Positions 6,543-26,351 of a stretch of DNA of 64,000 nucleotides are shown here, piece by piece; the first letter of the stretch is position 1, and each line of letters begins with the position of its first letter. Made by a program: the position numbers and the translations under genes. Under the pieces are notes generated by a model. The model saw only the letters and a list, made by a program, of their open reading frames with translations. It did no database searches and was not told the DNA's origin. The DNA is from Eubacteriales bacterium (GTDB lineage Bacteria > Bacillota > Clostridia > Oscillospirales > CAG-382). Where the stretch lies: positions 216-64,215 of the forward strand of contig JAZNWF010000004.1 in NCBI GenBank assembly GCA_045593165.1, in the 5' to 3' direction.

Positions 6543-6829
6543 GAACTTAAATGCGTTTGAGCAGGAACAAGTAGATTTAGACGGGCCCATACAGAGAGTT
6601 GTCGGTTGGTGCGAGGCAACGGGAAAAGCTATTTTGAATTCATCCTGTGAGCTGTGCACCGAACAAAAGGTTATCTTTTAAGTAAGCTGCAACGGGCGTT
6701 CCCGTAACAGAACAAGAGTGTTATTGCACTCCCCGAGGCCGCAATCGCGAGAAAGCGGTAAATAGAGGTGGTACCACGAGTCTTCTCGTCCTCTGTATTC
6801 TTTTCAGGAATACAGAGGATTTATTTTTT
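6543..6829 (+). promoter_or_regulatory. T-box riboswitch leader, specifier UUC (Phe)
   Basis: Stem I has GA motifs (GAgCAGGA / TCCTGtGA), an AGAGAG bulge and a TGGTGCGAG distal loop. The specifier loop reads GAA-TTC-A (TTC at 6639-6641). The T-box sequence is GAGGTGGTACCACGAG (6765-6780). The terminator is CCTCTGTATTC/GAATACAGAGG plus a T-run (6790-6829). Confidence 0.85.
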
Positions 6830-6859
6830 GTAAATTATTTTAATATAAAGGTGATAAAA

Positions 6860-8167
6860 ATGGAACAAAGGTATTATCAAAAAGAAATTGAGACCATGCC
6901 CGTTGAGGAGATGAAAAAGCTCCAATCCGAAAAGCTGGTACGTCAGGTAAAGCACGTTTATGAAAACGTTCCTTATTACCGTAACCTTATGGATGAAAAG
7001 GGTGTTAAGCCCGAAGATATCAACGGTATTGAGGATCTTCACAAGCTTCCCTTCCTTACCAAAGCCGATCTTCGCGATGCATATCCTTACGGACTTCTCG
7101 CAAAGCCGCTTGACGAATGCGTACGTATTCAGTCTACCTCGGGCACAACCGGACGCCGTGTTGTTGCTTTCTACACACAAAATGACGTAGACCTTTGGGA
7201 AGATTGCTGTGCACGTGCTATCGTTGCTGCCGGCGGAACCAACAAGGACGTATGTCAGGTTGCATACGGCTACGGTCTTTTCACAGGCGGTCCCGGTCTT
7301 AACGGCGGCTCACACCGTGTAGGTTGCTTGACGCTTCCTATGTCTTCGGGTAATACCGAACGTCAGATTCAATTTATGACCGACCTTTCCGCAACTATTC
7401 TTTGCTGTACCCCCTCCTACGCCGCATATATCGGCGAAACCTTGAAGGAAAAGGGCTATAAGCCCGAGGATATTCCCTTGAAGGCAGGTATTTTCGGTGC
7501 AGAGCCATGGACCGAGGAAATGCGCAAAAATATTGAAGAAACCTTGGGTATAAAGGCATACGACATCTACGGTCTTACCGAAACCTCCGGCCCGGGCGTG
7601 TCGTTCGAATGCTGTGAGCAGACCGGTATGCATATCAACGAGGACCACTTCCTTGCGGAAATTATTGATCCCGACACGGGCGAGGTTCTTCCCGAAGGAA
7701 GCAAGGGCGAGCTTGTATTCACCTCGCTCGACAAGGAGGCGTTCCCGCTTTTACGTTACCGCACACGTGATATCTGCGTGCTCTCGCGCAAGAAGTGCTC
7801 CTGCGGACGTACGCTTATTAAAATGGCGAAGCCAATGGGCAGAACCGACGATATGCTTATCATCCGCGGCGTAAACGTGTTCCCGAGCCAGATCGAAACC
7901 GTACTTCTTAACGAAGGATACGAGCCTAATTACCAGATCATCGTAGACAGACAGAACAACAACGACACGTTCGACATTAACGTTGAAATGACAGCAGAAA
8001 AATTCTCGGACAAGGTAACCGAAATTCTTGCTATGGAAAAATCTCTTGCAAACGCGATGAAGACTATGCTCGGCATCAATCCTACCGTTCATCTTGTCGC
8101 ACCCAAGACTATTGCGCGAAGCGAAGGCAAGGCTGTCCGCGTAGTTGACAAGCGCAAATTGGTTTAA
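6860..8167 (+). CDS. paaK: Phenylacetate--CoA ligase family protein (PaaK / F390-synthetase-like adenylate-forming enzyme)
   Basis: ATG at 6860 lies 6 nt after AAGGTG; the tracked start at 6851 is a GTG inside the RBS. Motifs seen: YYRNLMDEKGVKPEDI, LPFLTKADLRDAYP, QSTSGTTGRRVV, YGLTE, MLIIRGVNVFPSQIE. Confidence 0.85.
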   Translation: MEQRYYQKEIETMPVEEMKKLQSEKLVRQVKHVYENVPYYRNLMDEKGVKPEDINGIEDLHKLPFLTKADLRDAYPYGLLAKPLDECVRIQSTSGTTGRRVVAFYTQNDVDLWEDCCARAIVAAGGTNKDVCQVAYGYGLFTGGPGLNGGSHRVGCLTLPMSSGNTERQIQFMTDLSATILCCTPSYAAYIGETLKEKGYKPEDIPLKAGIFGAEPWTEEMRKNIEETLGIKAYDIYGLTETSGPGVSFECCEQTGMHINEDHFLAEIIDPDTGEVLPEGSKGELVFTSLDKEAFPLLRYRTRDICVLSRKKCSCGRTLIKMAKPMGRTDDMLIIRGVNVFPSQIETVLLNEGYEPNYQIIVDRQNNNDTFDINVEMTAEKFSDKVTEILAMEKSLANAMKTMLGINPTVHLVAPKTIARSEGKAVRVVDKRKLV

Positions 8168-8188: not shown

Positions 8189-8620
8189 ATGGCAATTAAA
8201 CAGTTGACCGTATTCGTAGAAAACAAACAGGGCGCGCTCGTTTCGATTACCGACACGCTCGCACAGAACAACGTGAATATCAGAGCCCTCTCGATTGCCG
8301 AAACAAACGATTTCGGTATACTCCGTCTTATTGTAAATGATGAAGCCACCGCTGAAAAGACTCTTGCGGAAAAGGGTTATCTTATAAAGGTGACAGAGGT
8401 AGTCGGTGTTAAGATAGGCGATGCACCCGGCAAGCTTACCGCCGCGCTCGATGTGCTTGACAGATCGGGTATCAATATGGAATATCTTTACGCGTTTATG
8501 GCGCGTACCGAAAAGCACGCATACGTAGTTCTTCGCGTTGAAGACAATGAAATTGCAGAGGCTGCACTCGAAAACGCAGGCTTCCACCTCATTACAGACG
8601 CAGATATCTGCAAGCTTTAA
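8189..8620 (+). CDS. Tandem ACT-domain (amino-acid-binding) protein
   Basis: 143 aa. Two beta-alpha-beta-beta-alpha-beta ACT-like halves are visible (LTVFVENKQGALVSITDTLAQNNVNIRALS and VGVKIGDAPGKLTAALDVLDRSGINMEYLY). It is co-operonic with paaK. Confidence 0.75.
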   Translation: MAIKQLTVFVENKQGALVSITDTLAQNNVNIRALSIAETNDFGILRLIVNDEATAEKTLAEKGYLIKVTEVVGVKIGDAPGKLTAALDVLDRSGINMEYLYAFMARTEKHAYVVLRVEDNEIAEAALENAGFHLITDADICKL

Positions 8621-8698: not shown

Positions 8699-8727
8699 TT
8701 GACAAACAAGGCGTATTGTGATAAAAT
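8699..8727 (+). promoter_or_regulatory. Sigma-A promoter of T-box operon 2
   Basis: TTGACA (8699-8704), 17-nt spacer, TAAAAT (8722-8727), with an upstream TGtGa. Confidence 0.65.
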
Positions 8728-8734
8728 TCATCAC

Positions 8735-9016
8735 AATAATAAACGCAGTGATGCGGAATAGTATGCAAAAGCATTCGCCGTACAGAGAGATGCCGTTTGG
8801 TGCGAGGCATTGGGAATTCTTTGCAGAACTCACCGCGGAGCGGCTGCCGTGAAAATCAGACGTAAGGGCAGACGGGAGCTCCCGTAACAGAGTAAAGATG
8901 TTTTTGCATCTAAGGGCATCCGCAACGGATGAAGAAGAGTGGTACCGCGGAAAAGTTAACTTTGTTTTTAACGTTTTCGTCTCTTTGAACCGACAAGGAG
9001 ACGGGAGCGTTTTTTT
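8735..9016 (+). promoter_or_regulatory. T-box riboswitch leader, specifier CUC (Leu)
   Basis: GA motifs GAtGCGG / CCGCgGA; AGTA in the 5' specifier loop; upper helix TGCAAA/TTTGCA; AGAGAG bulge; TGGTGCGAG distal loop. The specifier reads GAA-CTC-A (CTC at 8829-8831). The T-box sequence is AGAGTGGTACCGCGG (8936-8950). A terminator hairpin at 8972-9009 is followed by T7. Confidence 0.85.
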
Positions 9017-9070: not shown

Positions 9071-10459
9071 ATGAAAAAAATCAACATTTCCGATATCACA
9101 CTCAAAAAGCTTTCGCAGGATCGCAGCTTCTCGCTTCTTTTCCGTGAAAAGACCGCAATCGCAGTATGTGCAGATTCGCTCGGTGCAAACACTGTTGAGC
9201 TTGCACCCGTGAAGAACGCGCGCGAGGATGCTATCATTTGTAAAACGATCTCGCAAAACGTACGCAACGCAACACTAGCTATACCCGTAGGCTTTACTGC
9301 CGACGAGGTTCAGACTGCTTGGGAATGCATAAAGGATGCCAAATCTCCTCGTTTGCAGATAGAGATTCCCGCATCCACCGTTTTGATGGAATACACATAC
9401 CACATCAAATCCGAAAAAATGCTTACGAAAATTGCAGAATTGGTAAAATGTGCAAAATCGTTCTGCGAGGATATCGAATTCTCCGCGCTTGACGCAACGC
9501 GCGCAGACGTTGATTTTCTCGTTGCCGCGGCAAAGGAAGCAGAAAGTAACGGTGCGAGCATTATTACCATTTGCGATGATGCAGGAGTATCTCTCCCGCA
9601 AGATATCGCGAATCTTACCGCAAAGGTAAAGGAAAACGTATCCATACCTGTATACGTTCAGGTATCCGATAAAATCAACATGGCGGTCGCTTCTGCAATT
9701 GCGGCGATCTCCGCAGGTGCAGACGGTATCAAATGCGCTATGGCAGGCAAGGACGTTCTTCTCACCGGCGAGTTGGCTGATGCGCTTAAAGCCTGCAATT
9801 CGCAGATAGGCGCAGAAACCGATTTAAATAACACAAAAATCCATACAAGTATAGAGGATATGCTTTCCAATATCAATCACGAAGCATATGAAAACGAAGC
9901 AACAGTAAGTGAAAAGAAGAGAATGCTTCTCGATGCTGACAGCACAATTGCACAGGTAGCACATGCAACACAGATACTTGGCTACGAATTATCCGATTCC
10001 GATATCGGTAACGTACACAAGGCGCTTATCCAGGTATGTGAAAAGAAGGATACCGTAGGTGCAAAGGAGCTCGAAGCGCTTATTGCAAGCTCGGCTATGC
10101 AAGCTCCCTCTACATATCATCTCGAAAGCTACACTACCAACAGCAGTAATCTTGCAAGCTCTATGTCGCAGGTTACATTGAAATGCAACGGCGAAACCAT
10201 TTGCGGTGTCAGCACGGGCGACGGACCTATTGATTCGGCATTCCGAGCTATTGAACAGTGTATTGGCTTCCATTACGAATTAGACGATTTTCAGGTACAG
10301 TCCGTAACTGAAGGAAAGGAAGCGTTGGGCTCTGCTCTCGTACGCTTGCGTAACAACGGCAAGCTATATTCGGGTAACGGCATTTCGACCGATATTGTTG
10401 CGGCAAGCATAAGAGCATACATAAATGCACTCAACAAGATCGTATTCGAGGAGGCATAA
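9071..10459 (+). CDS. 2-isopropylmalate synthase (LeuA) paralog with degenerate catalytic motifs and an intact LeuA C-terminal regulatory domain
   Basis: It is collinear with LeuA, but DTTLRDGEQ is replaced by DITLKKLSQ, the H-x-H metal motif by QVSDK, and no HESGIHQDG is present. The C-terminus GDGPIDSAFRAIEQCI...GKEALGSALVRLRNNGKLYSGNGISTDIVAASIRAYINALNK matches the LeuA allosteric domain. Confidence 0.7.
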   Translation: MKKINISDITLKKLSQDRSFSLLFREKTAIAVCADSLGANTVELAPVKNAREDAIICKTISQNVRNATLAIPVGFTADEVQTAWECIKDAKSPRLQIEIPASTVLMEYTYHIKSEKMLTKIAELVKCAKSFCEDIEFSALDATRADVDFLVAAAKEAESNGASIITICDDAGVSLPQDIANLTAKVKENVSIPVYVQVSDKINMAVASAIAAISAGADGIKCAMAGKDVLLTGELADALKACNSQIGAETDLNNTKIHTSIEDMLSNINHEAYENEATVSEKKRMLLDADSTIAQVAHATQILGYELSDSDIGNVHKALIQVCEKKDTVGAKELEALIASSAMQAPSTYHLESYTTNSSNLASSMSQVTLKCNGETICGVSTGDGPIDSAFRAIEQCIGFHYELDDFQVQSVTEGKEALGSALVRLRNNGKLYSGNGISTDIVAASIRAYINALNKIVFEEA

Positions 10460-10460
10460 A

Positions 10461-12920
10461 ATGAAAATCGTATTCTCAACAAAAAACGTAAGCAGGTCAT
10501 CCTTTCTCGACACCTGCCGTTATGCGTACGATTACGGTTTTGAAGGCTTCGAAATATACGATGCCATCAAGGAGCGCAGTCAGCATCACGACAGCATTTT
10601 ACGCCGCGACCGTGTTTCAGACGCAAAAAGAAAGCTGATAAACCGCAATCTTTCCGTATCCGCACTCAGCTATCCCTATTCACTTGAACGTAACGACGCG
10701 AATGCGGAAACGATTTTGAAATACGTGGATATGGCGGCAAGCGCGGGCATCGCTTATATTATAGTCCGTATTGAAAATGAAGTTGAATTCGACGTATTAA
10801 AGGAAAAATTAGAGCCTGCAGTCAAGCGTGCAGAAATCTCCGACGTCGGTATACTTTTGGAAACCGTAGGATACCTTTCCGACACGGAAAAGGTAATAGA
10901 AATAATCAACCGCTTTTCTTCTGCCGCAATAGGCGCATCGTGGAACGTACGAGGCACTTATTTCGGCGCAGGTGAAACGGCTGAAACCACCATCAAGGTA
11001 CTCGGCGCATACATAAAATACGTACGCTTGGGCGATATGAAGGACGGCAAGACCGTGCTTATCGGAGAGGGCGAGCTTCCTGTGGAAAAGCTCCTCGGTG
11101 CGCTTTCCTCGCTGAATTTCGACGGATTTATCTGCGCGGCGTGGAACGAGGAAATAAACGACGCAGATATCGTGCTCACCCATTTCACAAATTACATCGC
11201 ATCTTTAAGCCGCGACAAAAAGGAGCACGACCGTTATTATTACAACCGCTCGAGAACCGGCACGTTCGTATGGAAGAAATACGACGTTATCGACGCAACC
11301 TTCTCCGACGTGCTTGACACAATGGTAGAAAACTACCCCGACCAGTACGCCTTCAAATACCCAACGCTTGATTACACGAGAACCTACGAGCAGTTCCGCC
11401 GTGACGTAGACGAATGTGCGGCAGCGCTCATTTCTTTGGGCGTAAAGGCGGGCGACCACGTCGCTGTTTGGGCAACCAACGTACCCGAATGGTATATTAC
11501 CTTCTGGGCAACCACAAAAATCGGTGCAGTTCTGGTAACGGTAAATACCGCATACAAGATTCACGAAATAGAATACCTGTTAAAGCAGTCCGACACTCAT
11601 ACGCTCGTTATGATCGAGTACTGTAAAGACATCAACTACAAGGAAATTATACAAGAGCTCTGCCCCGAGCTTGAAACGCTTACTCCCGGAAAACCGCTTT
11701 ATTCGAAAAACCTTCCCTTCTTGCGCAACGTTGTAACCGTTGGATTTTCGATGAACGGCTGTCTGGATTGGAATCAGATGCTTTCGCGTTCCTCGCTCGT
11801 TCCCCGCGAAGAAGTGCGCAGACGCGCTTCCTTGGTTAAGCCCGATGACGTATGTAATATGCAATATACCTCGGGTACGACAGGCTTCCCCAAGGGTGTT
11901 ATGCTCACTCACCGCAACATAGTAAACAACGGCAAGACAATCGGCGACAGAATGGACCTTTCCACCGCCGACCGTATGATGATACAGGTTCCGATGTTCC
12001 ATTGCTTCGGCATGGTGCTTTCGATGACCTCTATGATGACCCACGGCGGCACGCTTTGCCCTATTCCCTATTTCTCGCCCAAATCATCGCTTGCCTGCGT
12101 AAACGACGAGCACATAACCTGCTTCAACGGCGTTCCTACTATGTTTATCGCGATGTTCAACCACAAGGATTTTGCAAAAACCGACTTCTCGTATATGAGA
12201 ACCGGTATCATGGCAGGCGCAAACTGCCCTGCAGACCTTATGCGCCGTGCGGCAGATGAAATGAAGATGCGCGAGATAATCTCAGTTTACGGACAGACCG
12301 AGGCTTCGCCCGGCTGTACTATGGGCGAGGTAAACGAGGACATTGACCACCGCGTTGAAACGGTAGGCAGCCCCTTCCCCGGTGTTGAATGCAAGGTTAT
12401 CGACCCCGAAACGGGAGAAGAACTTCCCGACGGAGAAAGCGGCGAATTTGTAGCGCGCGGCTTCAATATTATGAAGGGTTATTACAAGATGCCCGAGGCA
12501 ACCGCACAAGCGATCGATGCTGACGGTTGGCTTCACAGCGGTGATATATGCTGTCGCACCCCCGACGGATACTACAAAGTAACCGGCAGATTGAAGGATA
12601 TGATAATCCGCGGCGGCGAAAACCTTTACCCGCGCGAAATCGAAGAGTTTTACCTTACCAACCCTAAGGTACGCGACGTTCAGGTTGTTGGCGTTCCCGA
12701 CGAAAAGTACGGCGAGGAATGCTGTGCGTGGGTAATACTCCACAAGGGCGAAACGGCAGACGAAAACGAAATGAAGGAATTCGGCAATGCGTTTATCGCG
12801 CGTCACAAGGTTCCGAGATATTTCCTTTTCGTCAATGAATTCCCGATGAATGCCGCAGGTAAAATACTCAAATACAAGATGCGTGACGAATCTGTTGAGA
12901 TTTTAGGGCTCAAAAAATAA
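10461..12920 (+). CDS. Fusion protein: xylose-isomerase-like TIM barrel (sugar phosphate isomerase/epimerase fold) plus an AMP-dependent acyl-CoA ligase (FadD/YngI-like)
   Basis: ATG at 10461 follows GAGGAGG; the tracked start at 10425 overlaps the upstream gene. About 270 N-terminal aa look like a TIM barrel (FEGFEIYD, ILLETVG, YVRLGD). The C-terminal part has AMP-binding motifs: MQYTSGTTGFPKGVMLTHRN, YGQTE, GWLHSGD, IIRGGENLYPREIE, AAGKILK. Confidence 0.75.
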   Translation: MKIVFSTKNVSRSSFLDTCRYAYDYGFEGFEIYDAIKERSQHHDSILRRDRVSDAKRKLINRNLSVSALSYPYSLERNDANAETILKYVDMAASAGIAYIIVRIENEVEFDVLKEKLEPAVKRAEISDVGILLETVGYLSDTEKVIEIINRFSSAAIGASWNVRGTYFGAGETAETTIKVLGAYIKYVRLGDMKDGKTVLIGEGELPVEKLLGALSSLNFDGFICAAWNEEINDADIVLTHFTNYIASLSRDKKEHDRYYYNRSRTGTFVWKKYDVIDATFSDVLDTMVENYPDQYAFKYPTLDYTRTYEQFRRDVDECAAALISLGVKAGDHVAVWATNVPEWYITFWATTKIGAVLVTVNTAYKIHEIEYLLKQSDTHTLVMIEYCKDINYKEIIQELCPELETLTPGKPLYSKNLPFLRNVVTVGFSMNGCLDWNQMLSRSSLVPREEVRRRASLVKPDDVCNMQYTSGTTGFPKGVMLTHRNIVNNGKTIGDRMDLSTADRMMIQVPMFHCFGMVLSMTSMMTHGGTLCPIPYFSPKSSLACVNDEHITCFNGVPTMFIAMFNHKDFAKTDFSYMRTGIMAGANCPADLMRRAADEMKMREIISVYGQTEASPGCTMGEVNEDIDHRVETVGSPFPGVECKVIDPETGEELPDGESGEFVARGFNIMKGYYKMPEATAQAIDADGWLHSGDICCRTPDGYYKVTGRLKDMIIRGGENLYPREIEEFYLTNPKVRDVQVVGVPDEKYGEECCAWVILHKGETADENEMKEFGNAFIARHKVPRYFLFVNEFPMNAAGKILKYKMRDESVEILGLKK

Positions 12921-12956
12921 CGAGGATAAAATTCCGCATTTTTTCCGGAAAAACTA

Positions 12957-12985
12957 TTGACAACGCGCTTAAATGAGAGTATAAT
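12957..12985 (+). promoter_or_regulatory. Consensus sigma-A promoter of T-box operon 3
   Basis: TTGACA (12957-12962), 17-nt spacer, TATAAT (12980-12985). Confidence 0.75.
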
Positions 12986-13009
12986 CCCTTACATCGAAAT
13001 TTGAATATC

Positions 13010-13272
13010 ACAAACAACTATGACGAAGACGGTCGGATTGCCAAATCTTCAGAGAGTTGGCGGTTGCTGCGAGCCAACGATGAAGCTTTCCAATGACCCA
13101 TCACTTCCGAGTTGGAGGACCGAAAATTTTATGAGTAGGCTCCTTCCGTAAAGCTGCGTTAAAGCAAGGGCTTGTCAGAGCCTATAAGGTGGCGGAATTT
13201 ATTTCCGCAATTTGAGTGGTACCGCGAGTTGTATGACCCGTCTCAAAGCAAAACTTTGGGACGGGTTTTTTG
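13010..13272 (+). promoter_or_regulatory. T-box riboswitch leader, probable specifier AUC (Ile)
   Basis: GA motifs GAcGAAG / CTTCcGA; AGAGAG bulge; GTTGGC/GCCAAC helix with a GCTGCGA distal loop. ATC-A (13100-13103) sits directly 5' of the basal helix, in the same register as the other two T-boxes. The T-box sequence is TGAGTGGTACCGCGAG (13213-13228). The terminator is ACCCGTC/GACGGGT plus T6 (13236-13272). Confidence 0.75.
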
Positions 13273-13331
13273 TTTTATTCAAATCTGAATTATCCGTATG
13301 GAGCGTACAGAAACGAAAGGAGCAAAACGAC

Positions 13332-15632
13332 ATGGAAATGAATTTGAAAGAGGTAGCAGGCAGAATCAAAGCGCTGCGCGAGGCAAAGGGCTATTCGCAG
13401 GAGGAGCTTGCAAAGCTTACCGGTGTATCGGTTGAGGATTACAAGCTTTTAGAGCAGGGCGAAACCGATTTCAGCTTTACCTTCATCTACAAGTGTGCAA
13501 AGGCGTGCAACGTTGAGGTTGTTGACATTATCGAGGGTACGAGTACTACTCTTACCTCGTTTGCAATTACCCGTAAGGGCGAGGGTCTTGAAATAATTAA
13601 AAAGCAGGCAGGCGTTTATTACAACCTTGCACCTAAATTCAAGGATAAGCTTGCCGAGCCGTTTTTGGTAAAGATGCCCTATATGGCAGAGGAGCAGAAC
13701 GCGCCTATCAAGCTTAATTCGCACAACGGTCAGGAATTTGACGTTATCGTTAAGGGCTCACTCAAGGTCCAGGTCGGCGGACATATTGCCGTTTTGAACG
13801 AGGGTGACTCGATATTCTACAACAGTATCATTCCCCACGGTATGATTGCTGTAAGCGAGGGCGGATGTGAATTCCACGCTGTCGTTTTGAATCCGCAGGA
13901 CGGTGACTACGCCGAATCCTATCCCGAAGCACCGTTCATCGCCGCAAAGACCGCCATCTCCGAAAACACGGTAAAAACCGTTGCAGATAACTTTATCGAA
14001 TCCTCATACGACGAAAACGGCGTATTTAACGGTATCGCCTTCAAGAACGACGACAAATTTAATTTCGCGTTTGACTGTGTAGATGCTATCGCAGAAAAGG
14101 ACCCCGACAAGCTTGCTATGCTTTGGGTTTCCAACGATAAAGCTGAACGCAGATTCACCTTCCGCGATATGAAGCGTTACTCGGCAAAGACAGCCAACTA
14201 TTTTGAATCGCTCGGTATTAAAAAGGGCGACACCGTAATGCTTGTATTGAAGCGTCATTATCAATTCTGGTTCTGTATGCTCGCACTCCACAAGATCGGC
14301 GCGATCGCTATCCCTGCTACCAACCAGCTTGTTGAGCACGACTTTACGTACAGATACAAGGCTGCACAGGTTAAAGCAATCGTATGCACCGCAGATGGCG
14401 AGGTTTCAACCGAGGCAGAAAAGGCTGCAAAGGATTTTCCCGGCATGATCAAGGTTCTCGTTGGCGGCAAAAAGGACGGTTGGAACGACTTTAATCTTGA
14501 AATGGAACGCTTCAGCACTCATTACGAACGCACCGAAGATTCTCCCTGCGGAAATGATCCGATGCTGATGCTTTTCACCTCCGGAACAACCGGTTATCCC
14601 CGCATCGCAACGCATTCCTTCAAGTATGCCTTAGGTCACTACCCCACCGCAAGACATTGGCACAACGTCAATCCCAACGGTCTGCACTTCACCATCTCCG
14701 ATACAGGCTGGGGCAAGGCGCTTTGGGGCAAGCTTTACGGACAATGGCTCTGTGAAGCGGCTACCTTCACCTATGACTTCGACAGATTCCGTTCGGAAGA
14801 TATTCTTCCCCTCTTTAAGCAATATAACATCACTACCTTCTGCGCACCTCCTACAATGTACCGATTCTTTATCAAGGAAGACCTTTCGAAATACGATCTT
14901 TCCTCTATCGAATATGCCACCACTGCAGGCGAAGCGCTCAACCCCGAGGTATTCAATCAGTTCAAAAAGGCTACCGGTCTTACCATTATGGAGGGCTTCG
15001 GTCAGACTGAAACCACGCTTTCTATCGCAAACTTCGTAGGATCTACTCCCAAGATTGGCTCTATGGGTAAGCCCAGTCCCTTGTACGACGTCAAGATCCT
15101 CGATCCCGACGGAAACGAATGTAAGACGGGCGACACGGGTGAGATCTGTATCAGCACCAAGAACGGAACTCCTTGCGGCTTATTTATCGGATATTATCTC
15201 GACGAGGAAAAGACCAACGACGTTTGGCACGACGGTTATTACCACACAGGTGACCAAGCGACTATGGACGAGGACGGATATCTTTGGTACGTTGGACGTA
15301 TCGACGACGTTATCAAATCTTCCGGTTACCGTATCGGCCCGTTCGAGATCGAAAGCGTTATTATGGAGCTTCCCTACGTGCTTGAATGTGCTATCACGCC
15401 CGTTCCCGATGAGATCCGCGGTCAGATCGTTAAAGCGACCATCGTTCTCACCAAGGGCACTGTAGGCACTGACGCACTGAAAAAGGAAATTCAGGAATAC
15501 GTAAAGACACACACCGCACCTTATAAGTATCCCAGAATAGTAGATTTCGTTGACGAGCTTCCCAAGACCATCAGCGGCAAGGTAAGACGTGTCGAGATCC
15601 GCAAAAAAGATTTGGAAAAATCCAACGGTTAA
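13332..15632 (+). CDS. Tripartite fusion: XRE-type HTH plus cupin plus an AMP-forming medium/short-chain acyl-CoA synthetase (ACS/MACS family)
   Basis: ATG at 13332 follows AAGGAG; the tracked start at 13212 lies inside the T-box terminator. HTH_3: LKEVAGRIKALREAKGYSQEELAKLTGVSVEDYKLLEQGE. Cupin: NSHNGQEFDVIVKGSL...GDSIFYNSIIPHGM. ACS core: LFTSGTTGYPRIA, GFGQTE, YHTGD, SSGYRIGPFEIES, ISGKVRR. Confidence 0.8.
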   Translation: MEMNLKEVAGRIKALREAKGYSQEELAKLTGVSVEDYKLLEQGETDFSFTFIYKCAKACNVEVVDIIEGTSTTLTSFAITRKGEGLEIIKKQAGVYYNLAPKFKDKLAEPFLVKMPYMAEEQNAPIKLNSHNGQEFDVIVKGSLKVQVGGHIAVLNEGDSIFYNSIIPHGMIAVSEGGCEFHAVVLNPQDGDYAESYPEAPFIAAKTAISENTVKTVADNFIESSYDENGVFNGIAFKNDDKFNFAFDCVDAIAEKDPDKLAMLWVSNDKAERRFTFRDMKRYSAKTANYFESLGIKKGDTVMLVLKRHYQFWFCMLALHKIGAIAIPATNQLVEHDFTYRYKAAQVKAIVCTADGEVSTEAEKAAKDFPGMIKVLVGGKKDGWNDFNLEMERFSTHYERTEDSPCGNDPMLMLFTSGTTGYPRIATHSFKYALGHYPTARHWHNVNPNGLHFTISDTGWGKALWGKLYGQWLCEAATFTYDFDRFRSEDILPLFKQYNITTFCAPPTMYRFFIKEDLSKYDLSSIEYATTAGEALNPEVFNQFKKATGLTIMEGFGQTETTLSIANFVGSTPKIGSMGKPSPLYDVKILDPDGNECKTGDTGEICISTKNGTPCGLFIGYYLDEEKTNDVWHDGYYHTGDQATMDEDGYLWYVGRIDDVIKSSGYRIGPFEIESVIMELPYVLECAITPVPDEIRGQIVKATIVLTKGTVGTDALKKEIQEYVKTHTAPYKYPRIVDFVDELPKTISGKVRRVEIRKKDLEKSNG

Positions 15633-15634
15633 TA

Positions 15635-15675
15635 AAAAAGCCACGCTTCCCAAACAGGAAGCGTGGTTTGTTTTT
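15635..15675. terminator. Bidirectional rho-independent terminator
   Basis: CCACGCTTCC / GGAAGCGTGG stem flanked by an A-run and a T-run, between convergent genes. Confidence 0.8.
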
Positions 15676-15703
15676 GCTTTATCCGATTTTCTGACGGTTT
15701 GCT

Positions 15704-16924
15704 TTAAAGCGAATATTTACGGAATATCTTTTTACCCTTCTTGAGCTTGATGCCCTCAGCAAGCGCAGCTTCCGAAACGGTCTGACCGACGGAGGTTACC
15801 TTTTCACCGTCGATGCTGATGCCGCCCTGCTCGATAAGACGGCGGGCTTCACCCTTGCTCTTTGCAAGCTCGCCCAACACAAGAAGATCGATAACGCTGA
15901 TATTGCCGTCAACCAAAAGCGAAGCGTCTACAACGGTTGAGGGCATATTTGCGTCGTCGCCCTCGCCGCTGAAGAGTGCACGCGAGGTTGCTTCCGCCTT
16001 CTTTGCCTCTTCCTCGCCGTGAACGAGCTCGGTAAGGCTATACGCGAGTATGGATTTCTTTTCGTTGATGCGCGAACCGTCCCATTTTTCCATTTCGTCG
16101 ATTTCTTCGATAGGAATGAAGGTGAGCATACGGATGCACTTCATAACGTCAGCATCATCAACGTTGCGCCAATACTGATAAAATTCAAAGGGCGAGGTCT
16201 TGTTGGGATCGAGCCATACTGCATTGCCTGCGGTCTTGCCCATTTTCTTGCCCTGCGAGTCGGTAAGGAGGGTTATCGTCATCGCATTAGCGTCCTTGCC
16301 GAGCTTACGTCTTATAAGCTCGGTACCGCCGAGCATATTCGACCACTGGTCGTCGCCGCCAAACTGCAGATTGCAATCGTAGTTCTTGAAAAGATAATAG
16401 AAGTCGTAGGACTGCATTATCATATAGTTGAATTCGAGGAAGGAAAGACCCTTCTCCATTCTTTGCTTGTAGCATTCGGCTCTGAGCATATTGTTTACCG
16501 AGAAGCAGGCACCGACGTCGCGAAGCATATCAACGTAATTGAGGTTCAACAGCCAATCGGCGTTGGTGATCATCATTGCCTTATCTTCACCGAATTCGAT
16601 AAACTTTTCCATCTGCTTTTTGAAGCAATCGGCGTTATGGTCGATATCTTCCTTGGTGAGCATTTTTCTCATATCGCTTCTGCCCGAGGGGTCGCCGATC
16701 ATTGTCGTGCCGCCGCCGATAAGCGCAATAGGCTTGTTGCCCGCCATCTGAAGACGCTTCATAAGAGTGAGCGCCATAAAATGACCTGCGGTAAGGCTGT
16801 CTGCGGTGCAGTCAAAGCCGATATAAAACTTTGCCTTGCCGTTATTGACAAGCTCTCTGATCTCTTCCTCATTGGTTACCTGAGCTATCAGTCCGCGCGC
16901 TTTTAATTCTTCATAAATCTGCAT
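15704..16924 (-). CDS. tyrS: Tyrosine--tRNA ligase
   Basis: 406 aa. The class I HIGH-like motif (TADSLTAGHF), the KMGKT (KMSKS) motif and a C-terminal S4 domain are present. Confidence 0.95.
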   Translation of the reverse strand: MQIYEELKARGLIAQVTNEEEIRELVNNGKAKFYIGFDCTADSLTAGHFMALTLMKRLQMAGNKPIALIGGGTTMIGDPSGRSDMRKMLTKEDIDHNADCFKKQMEKFIEFGEDKAMMITNADWLLNLNYVDMLRDVGACFSVNNMLRAECYKQRMEKGLSFLEFNYMIMQSYDFYYLFKNYDCNLQFGGDDQWSNMLGGTELIRRKLGKDANAMTITLLTDSQGKKMGKTAGNAVWLDPNKTSPFEFYQYWRNVDDADVMKCIRMLTFIPIEEIDEMEKWDGSRINEKKSILAYSLTELVHGEEEAKKAEATSRALFSGEGDDANMPSTVVDASLLVDGNISVIDLLVLGELAKSKGEARRLIEQGGISIDGEKVTSVGQTVSEAALAEGIKLKKGKKIFRKYSL

Positions 16925-16998
16925 TTTTCCGATGCCTCCTATAAAATAAAGCCGAATAGGAAAAACCTTATCGGCGATAACTGTCCTTTGATTTGCAT

Positions 16999-17027
16999 AT
17001 TATATCATATTCGGTCATAAAAATCAA
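16999..17027 (-). promoter_or_regulatory. Sigma-A promoter for tyrS
   Basis: On the minus strand: TTGATT, 17-nt spacer, TATAAT. Confidence 0.55.
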
Positions 17028-17228
17028 TCCTTTTTAAGCATAAGTTAATGCTGCAGATAACGCCATTACAGCAAAAGGACACCTTTTGGCGCACCTGCGA
17101 TAAAGCAGGTGCACCTTCTCTTGCTGTACAGCAAGATATGTGTTATAATAAAAATAAGTCAATAATCTCTGCAAGGACAACTGAGGTATTCGTATGCTAA
17201 AATGTAAGCACAGAAAGGAGATGACTTT

Positions 17229-18431
17229 ATGGAAAACAAAAACTTAATTGACAAAGCCATCGGATTCATACAAAAGAATCCAAAAGACAATCTGTCGCTA
17301 CAGAGTATTGCAGATAACGCAGGATTTTCACTCACCTACTTTGATGCAATCTTCAGACAGCATACGGGATACAGCCCCGTGGAATACTCTCGTATTTACA
17401 AACTCACAAGAAGCGCACTTGAACTTCGCAGAACGCAAAAAAACATACTTGAAATTGCTCTTGACTTCGGCTATGCAAGCCCCGAAAGTTTCACTCGCGC
17501 CTTCAAAAACTTTTACAGTATCACGCCGAGTGAATACCGTGAAAAGTATTCTGGAGAGGCAGTCACTTGGCACGATCTTTCCGGTAAAATTGCAATCAGC
17601 CATTTCAGAAGAAGTTTTCCGGAATTAAAGGTGTCGGATATTGACCTCGCTCTGGACTTTTGCTTTACACATAATCCTCTTAAGTATGCCGAGGATATTG
17701 TAGGAATGACGGTTGCAGAGTCTGAGATCCTTACGCTTGGGAATCCCGAAAATCTTGAGCATTTTGTTTATGTGTCGGATTACAATTCCGTAGAGCCTGC
17801 CGTAATGCTCATCTGCGAAACAGAGGCAGACGCACTGCCTTATTTGAATCTATTCGGCAAACTCACAAATCCGAGATTCTCTGTACGCAGATCGGTTGAT
17901 ACGGAATGGGAGCTCTTTGATGCCGAAGTAGCAAAGTTAGGGCTTACCTGCCGTTACAGATACGATATGATCTATCCCAAAGATACGGTTTCTGTTCCTG
18001 AATATGAAGGTCTGGGAATTCGCTTGCTCACCATAGAAGATATGCCTTTAATAAAAACCTTCAAGCAAAGCGGCGGATGTGCAGAATGCCATGTCAGAGC
18101 AATCCAAATTCACTTTGATGGCAAGGGAAATGTAGGAATGACACCTATGGGGATTTTTGAAAATGAAGAACTGATTTGCCTCGCTATGCCTGATCTTGAT
18201 CAAATCAGAGAACTCAAAAAATATGATATTGGTGCTATTTTTACGATCAATACAACAAGCGAAGAAAAAGCTATCGACTTGATATGGAGATATGCTATTG
18301 ATTACTGTTTGAGAGACAATGCTACCATTGGAAACGCTAACTCAGACGAGGATGACTCACCTCTTGGAGTAGCAGTTTGTGAAAAAGTAGGCCTCGTAAA
18401 AGTTGCTAAAAATTGCGGTTATAGTAAATGA
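17229..18431 (+). CDS. AraC-family regulator with an N-terminal HTH and a C-terminal effector domain of uncertain, possibly GNAT-like, fold
   Basis: The first ~105 aa form a double HTH_18 (LSLQSIADNAGFSLTYFDAIFRQHTGYSPVEY...FGYASPESFTRAFKNFYSITPSEYR). The remaining ~295 aa are unassigned. Confidence 0.75.
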   Translation: MENKNLIDKAIGFIQKNPKDNLSLQSIADNAGFSLTYFDAIFRQHTGYSPVEYSRIYKLTRSALELRRTQKNILEIALDFGYASPESFTRAFKNFYSITPSEYREKYSGEAVTWHDLSGKIAISHFRRSFPELKVSDIDLALDFCFTHNPLKYAEDIVGMTVAESEILTLGNPENLEHFVYVSDYNSVEPAVMLICETEADALPYLNLFGKLTNPRFSVRRSVDTEWELFDAEVAKLGLTCRYRYDMIYPKDTVSVPEYEGLGIRLLTIEDMPLIKTFKQSGGCAECHVRAIQIHFDGKGNVGMTPMGIFENEELICLAMPDLDQIRELKKYDIGAIFTINTTSEEKAIDLIWRYAIDYCLRDNATIGNANSDEDDSPLGVAVCEKVGLVKVAKNCGYSK

Positions 18432-26149: not shown

Positions 26150-26225
26150 TGGTTGCGGAGACAGGATTCGAACCTGCGACCTCCGTGTTATGAGCCCGAC
26201 GAGCTACCAACTGCTCTACCCCGCG
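26150..26225 (-). tRNA. Initiator tRNA-Met (CAU)
   Basis: Minus strand: CGCGGGGTAGAGCAGTTGGTAGCTCGTCGGGCTCATAACACGGAGGTCGCAGGTTCGAATCCTGTCTCCGCAACCA. It has the C1xA72 mismatch, an encoded CCA and anticodon CAT. G30 faces A40, breaking one of the three G-C pairs. Confidence 0.9.
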
Positions 26226-26262
26226 ATATTGATTTATATTAACATAAACGTTACTTTTAAAA

Positions 26263-26351
26263 TGGTGCCGGAAACCGGGCTTGAACCGGTACGAGGGGTG
26301 AACCTCACTGGATTTTAAGTCCAGGGCGTCTGCCAATTCCGCCACTCCGGC
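26263..26351 (-). tRNA. tRNA-Leu (UAA), class II with a long variable arm
   Basis: Minus strand: GCCGGAGTGGCGGAATTGGCAGACGCCCTGGACTTAAAATCCAG...GGTTCAAGCCCGGTTTCCGGCACCA. The anticodon loop is CTTAAAA. Confidence 0.9.

Follow-up and report, generated by a model that had tools for sequence, protein, structure and literature searches.

A T-box-controlled HTH-cupin-acyl-CoA synthetase fusion in an Oscillospirales genome and its probable part in isoleucine salvage

Fibre-degrading bacteria of the gut and rumen often need branched-chain volatile fatty acids, and the reductive carboxylation of such acids to valine, isoleucine and leucine has long been accepted physiologically. To our knowledge, the genes that activate the branched acids are not generally assigned in genome annotation. 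A stretch of 64,000 nucleotides from an Eubacteriales bacterium (Oscillospirales, CAG-382; contig JAZNWF010000004.1, positions 216 to 64,215 of the forward strand; assembly GCA_045593165.1), called the window below, joins this question to a second one, for it holds a gene in which a helix-turn-helix (HTH) domain and a cupin precede an entire acyl-coenzyme A (acyl-CoA) synthetase behind a T-box leader. Which acid does this enzyme activate, and what does the HTH-cupin module do in front of it? Judged from sequence, it is very probable that the gene encodes a 2-methylbutyrate-CoA ligase, induced by isoleucine starvation and feeding reductive carboxylation to isoleucine, when enzyme, T-box and pathway are taken jointly. 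That the module is a metal-dependent binder of a small anionic ligand, modulating the attached ligase at the protein level, has a little under an even chance, while the best explanation as a whole, an isoleucine-responsive salvage ligase with a ligand-sensing accessory module, stands at about even.

All coordinates are positions in the window, and amino acid (aa) numbers are those of its 766-aa product. The gene and the parts of its product are as follows (AF2, AlphaFold2 model; pLDDT, its predicted local distance difference test score; MACS, medium-chain acyl-CoA synthetase).

13316..13322, plus strand: ribosome-binding site AAAGGAG (sequence; kept in the alignment of relatives)
13332..15632, plus strand: HTH-cupin-acyl-CoA synthetase coding sequence, 766 aa (open reading frame, Pfam, homologue architecture)
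13344..13535, plus strand: XRE-type HTH, aa 5-68, with the recognition helix VSVEDYKLLE at aa 32-41 (Pfam HTH_3, AF2)
13617..13895, plus strand: cupin beta-barrel, aa 96-188, with invariant H131, E135 and H169 (Pfam Cupin_2, AF2)
13896..13976, plus strand: poorly conserved linker, aa 189-215, the site of gene fusion (15% identity, pLDDT below 50)
13977..15629, plus strand: MACS/MbcS-type AMP-forming acyl-CoA synthetase, aa 216-766 (Pfam, PDB and NCBIfam matches)

The longest open frame given by the reading-frame finder is 13212..15632 on the plus strand. Its TTG at 13212 lies within the T-box and its first 120 bases overlap that element, and the real start is therefore the ATG at 13332, nine bases past AAAGGAG. 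Pfam finds HTH_3 at aa 12-64 (43.7 bits, cut-off 23; E 2.8e-11), Cupin_2 at aa 127-184 (37.2 bits, cut-off 27.2; E 2.4e-9), AMP-binding at aa 252-621 (200.1 bits; E 6.4e-59) and AMP-binding_C at aa 672-750 (76.2 bits; E 3.7e-21), all four over their curated cut-offs. These four domains uphold the preliminary description of this locus, made from the sequence alone, which had placed an HTH, a cupin and an acyl-CoA synthetase in that order in one frame at exactly 13332-15632. The architecture recurs in 120 of the 120 best homologue clusters (86-92% identity), and all 80 loci from GTDB species representatives match across the junction between module and ligase. An uninterrupted fused frame of at least 745 aa is present in 62 of the 80 (size range 745-769 aa), the remainder being mostly truncated at contig ends. 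Since a single open frame is kept in about 60 species, frameshift or mis-assembly is ruled out as the cause of the fusion, which is therefore real, and the undetected frameshift that had been feared at the outset is unlikely. The distribution of the fusion, which had been set down for mapping, covers several groups of Clostridia over these 80 loci, with carriers in Oscillospiraceae, Acutalibacteraceae, Ruminococcus, Christensenellaceae and unclassified Clostridia, mainly from ruminant and other animal guts.

Over aa 240-761 the ligase half matches the medium-chain acyl-CoA synthetase of M. acetivorans (MacsMa, PDB 3ETC) with 677 bits and 56% identity across 521 aligned positions; a 4-hydroxybutyrate-CoA ligase and human ACSM2A follow, with far lower scores for acetyl-CoA synthetases. 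Among NCBIfam models MbcS scores best, at 451.7 bits against an equivalog cut-off of 850, and the window ligase is therefore a relative of MbcS and not an equivalog. Its assignment to the MACS family, proposed beforehand, agrees with both matches. The P-loop FTSGTTGYPR (aa 415-424) and the catalytic K750 in PKTISGK are invariant in 63 fused proteins. Further, G557 in EGFGQTE occupies the site of the acetate-gating Trp (Trp414/416 of Acs), and the alternative pocket Trp is kept, W443 aligning with the Trp of AKYWQN in 3ETC. The acid favoured by MacsMa is 2-methylbutyrate, and this enzyme, too, has a Gly at the site of the gating Trp of acetyl-CoA synthetases (PMC10455477); MbcS prefers isobutyrate and 2-methylbutyrate, the iC4 and aC5 acids (PMC13584741, PMC10026030). 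Given G557 in place of that Trp, W443, the kinship with MacsMa and MbcS and the invariant motifs, an enzyme specific for acetate only, an outcome weighed in the preliminary description, appears unlikely.

The second line of evidence is the leader of the gene, whose elements are listed here.

12936..12957, plus strand: A/T tract, UP-element-like, 5' of the -35 box (T-run/A-run pattern kept in relatives)
12958..12986, plus strand: sigma-70-type promoter, TTGACA-17 nt-TATAAT (sequence; alignment of relatives)
12996..13017, plus strand: 5' strand of a long-range RNA helix, AAATTTGAATATCACAAACAAC, at the transcript start and just 5' of stem I (near-invariant in 37 loci)
13011..13248, plus strand: T-box leader (Rfam RF00230, 106.8 bits, E 1.4e-22, gathering score 93)
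13100-13102, plus strand: specifier AUC (Ile), read by its position in the T-box
13215-13226, plus strand: T-box sequence AGTGGTACCGCG (= AGUGGUACCGCG) (Rfam T-box, conserved in relatives)
13237..13276, plus strand: intrinsic terminator of the T-box, stem CCCGTCTCAAAG/CTTTGGGACGGG followed by a U tract (sequence; alignment of relatives)
13265..13285, plus strand: 3' strand of the long-range RNA helix, GTTTTTTGTTTTATTCAAAT, which takes in the terminator U tract (pairing, alignment)

An isoleucine T-box had been predicted 5' of the gene, and both the Rfam score and the AUC specifier establish it. The leader has the specifier, the T-box sequence and the terminator/antiterminator elements, all conserved in relatives. 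The T-box sequence stands 80-230 nt 5' of the start codon in each of the 78 related loci with enough upstream DNA, and Rfam also confirms a T-box in divergent related loci. TTGACA and a TATAAT-like box lie at the same place in nearly all related loci.

The amino acid named by the specifier divides the family: about 79 loci have AUC (Ile) and about 20 have GUA or GUC (Val), with Ile and Val the only amino acids found. Five loci (L067, L142, L143, L153 and L166) hold a tandem of T-box(Ile)-gene and T-box(Val)-gene, with AUC first and GUA second, and the Val-type proteins form one clade within the fused clade of the tree. Only four residues cleanly split the two types, and only one of these is in the ligase: residue 461 in the segment DTGW-G/A-K is Gly in the Ile type and Ala in the Val type. 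This residue, which we take to be an acyl-pocket position, aligned with the acetate-pocket Val in the GWVT segment of acetyl-CoA synthetase, would then pair a side chain larger by one carbon with a substrate smaller by one carbon, which would fit. Downstream of two Val-type genes, on the same strand, are a 2-oxoacid:ferredoxin oxidoreductase alpha subunit (POR_N/PFOR_II; L053) and a class IV aminotransferase (Aminotran_4; L064). The route from acid to acyl-CoA, 2-oxo acid and amino acid by reductive carboxylation has long been inferred for rumen organisms (PMC2812497). Taken together, the specifiers, the tandem pairs, residue 461, the oxidoreductase and aminotransferase neighbours and the Phe and Leu T-boxes of two other window ligases support a role in the salvage of isoleucine and valine from branched fermentation acids. 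The homologues, the Ile specifier and the G461A exchange of the Val type are the grounds for inferring a preference for 2-methylbutyrate; as the substrate suggested at first, this acid gains backing from the T-box in 78 of 78 loci, the Val-specifier paralogues with their Gly-to-Ala change and the neighbouring pathway genes.

How would these parts work together? The gene would be a monocistronic unit responding to isoleucine starvation, in which a strong constitutive promoter drives the AUC T-box leader and, as knowledge of the T-box family suggests, read-through occurs only with uncharged tRNA-Ile. The C-terminal 550 aa would convert 2-methylbutyrate to 2-methylbutyryl-CoA, a 2-oxoacid:ferredoxin oxidoreductase would carboxylate this ester reductively, and a branched-chain aminotransferase would turn the resulting 2-oxo acid into isoleucine. 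The latter two enzymes would be coded elsewhere in the window genome; in other genomes their genes lie beside the Val-type paralogues. It could be asked whether the ligase instead supplies branched acyl-CoA primers for membrane fatty acids, or serves catabolism, with the T-box merely coupling it to branched-chain supply. The best curated family is after all MbcS, through which exogenous acids can be used to make branched-chain fatty acids (PMC10026030, PMC11167679). For a gene of amino-acid supply, however, induction by uncharged tRNA-Ile or tRNA-Val is sensible, the oxidoreductase and aminotransferase neighbours fit synthesis, and the window has a Phe T-box before a phenylacetate-CoA ligase and a Leu T-box before a second ligase, which together make a primer or catabolic role improbable.

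The gene context of the fused gene varies among relatives, with no constant neighbour, and in the window the next gene 3' of it is a convergent tyrS (15704-16924). In two close relatives, L171 (12415-13854) and L172 (12401-13813), the next gene codes for a 470-479-aa protein with weak Lactamase_B and faint ACT matches. A 287-aa protein with a weak CbiA/MinD-type P-loop match lies between the Val-type fused gene and the oxidoreductase alpha gene in L053/L056 (6274-8394), and this CbiA/MinD-like protein is found downstream of the fused gene in 8 loci. Locus L170 (2111-7978) combines a T-box(Ile), a normal fused gene (769 aa), a paralogue, P0158, and a class I/II aminotransferase. P0158 has a degenerate P-loop (LQSYSYGMAK), is without the catalytic Lys (PKDANGV) and without a Pfam HTH, and keeps the cupin triad intact; it is possibly a pseudo-enzyme.

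Rfam places three T-boxes in the window, the other two having the specifiers UUC (Phe) and CUC (Leu). The Phe T-box (6547-6796) precedes a PaaK-type phenylacetate-CoA ligase (6851-8167; TIGR02155, 529 bits) and an ACT-pair protein (8189-8620), a unit that appears to apply this salvage logic to phenylalanine; the same PaaK and ACT pair stands beside a DAHP synthase in L171. The Leu T-box (8739-8987) precedes a LeuA-like gene (9071-10459) and, with a 35-nt overlap, the gene of an 831-aa protein (10425-12920) in which a xylose-isomerase-like TIM barrel is joined to a FadD-type ligase. Locus L084 (7371-9872) has the split form, an AP_endonuc_2 gene and a ligase gene, and the 831-aa protein is therefore a second fusion of an accessory domain with a ligase in the window genome; the corresponding region of L172 is 14072-18104. 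The Leu T-box promoter has a 12+12 palindrome, TATTGTGATAAA / TTCATCACAATA, across its -10 box (8714-8738); this palindrome looks like a candidate operator, with no other close copy in the window and none at the orthologous promoter in L172. A palindrome common to the three T-box promoters of the window was ruled out, as only the Leu promoter has one. Elsewhere the window holds a match to the Gut-1 small RNA (58.6 bits, 1092-1168), genes for tRNA-Met(CAT) and tRNA-Leu(TAA) on the minus strand (26150-26351), and genes for Spo0A and a dockerin protein.

The second question concerns the module, and its origin can be traced. Searching 1.8 billion cluster representatives with aa 1-240 by HMMER returned fused relatives down to 38% identity and, from about E 1e-30, also many standalone HTH-cupin proteins of about 185 aa, whose profile matches more than 5,000 clusters. 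In three look-ups and in nearly all of about 45 metagenome split loci, the standalone gene lies directly 5' of a MACS-type ligase gene of about 550 aa on the same strand, and these ligases are 49-63% identical to the ligase half of the window protein. Some split operons have a T-box (L087) and many have none. Neighbour joining on the module sequences puts the split forms at the base of the tree and gathers the fused forms into what is essentially a single clade; there are about four changes between split and fused states, some of them contig artefacts. The split partner genes and the tree therefore identify the window protein as a fusion of a widespread two-gene module. Between divergent fused pairs identity is 53% in the HTH, 59% in the cupin, 15% in the linker and 66-83% in the ligase. 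The HTH and cupin values, far above that of the linker, indicate that the module is under purifying selection, and a vestigial module is unlikely because of this conservation. The AF2 model of the module (pLDDT 86.5) has five helices in the HTH and a cupin with pLDDT above 90, and the joint between module and ligase is modelled as a free linker (pLDDT below 50).

Given an HTH and an enzyme that forms an adenylate, the preliminary description had suggested a BirA-like enzyme and repressor. An HTH dimer would bind an operator in the promoter of its own gene or of others (oxidoreductase, aminotransferase, de novo ilv genes), with the cupin or the ligase-made acyl-adenylate setting the DNA affinity, so that transcription is controlled at both the tRNA and the protein level. 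Several observations speak for it. The HTH_3 domain is matched significantly and evolves under purifying selection; the characterised XRE-cupin proteins are all local repressors that bind palindromes as dimers (PMC7901475), and the split form, an operon with the regulator first, has precisely their gene layout; many split loci are without a T-box and therefore need some other control; and the base-contacting, exposed positions of the recognition helix differ between lineages, as expected with diverging operators. A weak TTTG-N7-CAAA dyad also occurs within 12999-13014.

The charge of the domain argues the other way. Over aa 5-68 the median net charge of the HTH is -3 for the 117 standalone-plus-window sequences and -5 for the 63 fused ones, the recognition helix being net acidic in both sets. 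The helix-turn-helix core has -3 to -4, with Glu/Asp at recognition-helix positions 35 and 36, and the window HTH itself has -3. The three HTH domains in the profile alignment with solved structures have +1, -1 and +4. Operator searches, which required exact arms and covered gene-adjacent promoters only, found no conserved palindrome in the aligned T-box fused promoters (about 40 close relatives), none in the T-box-less fused promoters, where an extended -10 box is conserved, and no dyad enriched over shuffled controls in 29 T-box-less split promoters. On the 766-aa product Pfam gave HTH_3, Cupin_2 and AMP-binding families only, with no BirA homology and no biotin-protein-ligase domain.

The one promoter-proximal element that is conserved proved to be of another kind. 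When the promoters of about 40 close relatives are aligned, the sole conserved non-promoter element is AAATTTGAATATCACAAA, where the transcript begins, and an inverted near-copy of it sits just after the terminator, 270 nt downstream. Between 12996-13017 and 13265-13285, 94% of cells are paired across 37 loci, compared with 42-64% in slid controls; there are compensatory changes at four pairs, and in the divergent loci L011, L026, L068 and L080 both strands are altered together. Because the strands pair with compensatory changes, the element is read as part of an RNA helix closing the T-box, and ATTTGAATATCACAAA by the -10 box is ruled out as an operator. The A/T tracts 5' of the -35 box were likewise rejected as an operator, since they fit the UP-element pattern and the CCGG palindrome of the window genome (TTTTTCC/GGAAAAA, 12940-12953) is not kept in relatives. 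In this helix of about 20 bp the first transcript bases pair with the terminator U tract and the stretch that follows, so that the entire T-box is enclosed; possible roles are in mRNA stability or termination efficiency.

With an acidic HTH, no BirA homology, no conserved palindrome in the gene's own or two other promoter classes, where a search for a shared one had been proposed, and a conserved element that co-varies as an RNA helix strand would, the BirA-like repressor first imagined is not borne out and appears unlikely. Of the dual control proposed for the gene, the RNA level is upheld by the Ile T-box, and control by DNA binding at the protein level is not at the promoters searched. A separate observation concerns the eight T-box-less fused genes (L126, L129, L131, L133, L134, L136, L138 and L148), whose 5' regions of about 250 nt have in common an extended -10 promoter, a hairpin that varies and has a run of U, and a 5' GTAAGC box complementary to a GCTTGC at the start codon; Rfam finds no known RNA family in these leaders.

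What else could the module do? The closest PDB matches of its two domains, by profile and Foldseek, are HppE/Psf4, then 1Y9Q, then HEPD, MPnS and PhpD. The profile match to the HppE type spans both domains (aa 32-173, E 1.6e-7, about 21% identity), and the best Foldseek matches, HppE, HEPD and MPnS, reach E 7e-15 with a TM-score of about 0.5. H131, E135 and H169, all invariant, line up with the His-Glu-His of HppE, in which these residues bind iron, and the invariant R81 aligns with an Arg of Psf4. These matches, 1Y9Q excepted, are enzymes whose HTH-like domain is not known to bind DNA. The N-terminal 190 aa, formerly the product of a separate upstream partner gene, are an XRE-fold/cupin module with a His-Glu-His metal site. 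In the reading favoured here, this module would bind a small anionic ligand and modulate the attached ligase through feedback or substrate gating, and would not be a BirA-like repressor.

These structural matches, the triad, R81 and the retention of the cupin triad in P0158, whose ligase motifs are lost, would also suit a catalytic cupin, in which an HppE-like mononuclear metal centre acts on the acid or CoA ester before or after ligation and the HTH is merely structural or oligomerising. The step from branched acid to CoA ester needs no extra chemistry, however, and known HppE-type reactions use oxygen or peroxide, whereas the hosts are strictly anaerobic gut bacteria. There are no phosphonate genes in the window or the related loci, the TM-scores are only about 0.5, and the module is common to the Ile and Val types, though only 2-methylbutyrate is chiral. 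A catalytic role is accordingly highly improbable. Less likely than not is the joint claim of a two-layer device, in which the protein is made on uncharged tRNA-Ile and the XRE-cupin part responds to a further signal, be it the acid substrate, the 2-oxo acid, the CoA ester or a metal. Its output would be either DNA binding, as in a BirA-like trigger enzyme that switches between salvage and de novo branched-chain synthesis, or allosteric gating of the ligase.

The preferred reading, of a salvage ligase whose module senses a ligand and gates the enzyme, has to face several points that weigh against it. The repressor precedent of the XRE-cupin proteins, the identical layout of the split form, the lineage differences in the recognition helix and the narrow scope of the operator searches have been given above. 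Moreover, MacsMa and MbcS function without an HTH-cupin module; the full-length AF2 model, built on a shallow alignment, is too poor for module-ligase contacts (pLDDT 59.7); and there is no 2-oxoacid:ferredoxin oxidoreductase gene within the 64-kb window. The only cupin residue that separates Ile from Val types is F136C, and the cupin ligand is therefore not obviously the amino acid or the acid.

The salvage ligase, as proposed here, could nevertheless be of use beyond this locus. The T-box specifier tags each ligase paralogue with an amino acid, Ile or Val with the Gly/Ala switch at 461, and the Phe and Leu T-boxes tag two more window ligases. It follows that gene-to-substrate assignments become testable for hundreds of uncultured Oscillospirales genomes, in which the proteins are named just 'AMP-binding protein'. 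The conserved HTH-cupin partner, a separate gene in thousands of genomes but joined to the ligase in this one, is an accessory of the ligase family, and whether it acts on DNA or on the enzyme, its elucidation would define a new regulatory module for acyl-CoA synthetases. If allosteric gating is true, no XRE-cupin module would have been shown before this one to regulate an adenylate-forming enzyme by direct action, and the two-layer logic, if true, extends to thousands of split HTH-cupin/ligase operons. A limited literature search gave no paper that connects T-boxes to CoA ligases, or HTH-cupin modules to acyl-CoA synthetases, and T-boxes are not mentioned in the MbcS paper (PMC13584741) or the MacsMa paper (PMC10455477). 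Within that search, T-box acid-CoA ligases with Ile/Val paralogues, the HTH-cupin/ligase partnership and fusion, and the T-box-enclosing helix were not found described.

Among known systems, MacsMa (3ETC) and S. aureus MbcS share with the window protein the ANL-superfamily ligase, the Gly that replaces the acetate-gating Trp, the pocket Trp and all catalytic motifs; unlike it, they have no N-terminal HTH-cupin, and the role of MbcS in S. aureus is fatty-acid priming, whereas the one proposed here is amino-acid salvage. The XRE-cupin factors PuuR, PauR, PsdR and ErfA have the same HTH_3 and Cupin_2 domains, the PuuR model weakly matches both module domains, and the standalone relatives of about 185 aa likewise lie by a metabolic gene. 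The window module differs from these factors in being fused to an enzyme, in its net acidic HTH, in that no palindromic operator was detectable in three promoter classes and in a partner gene that is always downstream on the same strand. HppE, HEPD and MPnS share the HTH-like alpha domain, the cupin and the His-Glu-His, and show that the two-domain fold need not bind DNA; their phosphonate chemistry and dependence on oxygen or peroxide have no such context for the window protein. Like the enzyme-repressors BirA, NadR and PutA, it joins an enzyme to a putative DNA-binding domain. With BirA it also has adenylate formation in common, a resemblance in logic and not in descent, since the winged helix and biotin-protein ligase of BirA have no sequence or fold kinship with an XRE HTH and an ANL ligase. 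Finally, in common with other T-box genes of amino-acid supply, the window gene has a canonical leader and plausibly raises the cognate amino acid; it differs from the usual ones in being an acid-CoA ligase, presumably for salvage, and in a leader enclosed by an extra 5'/3' helix.

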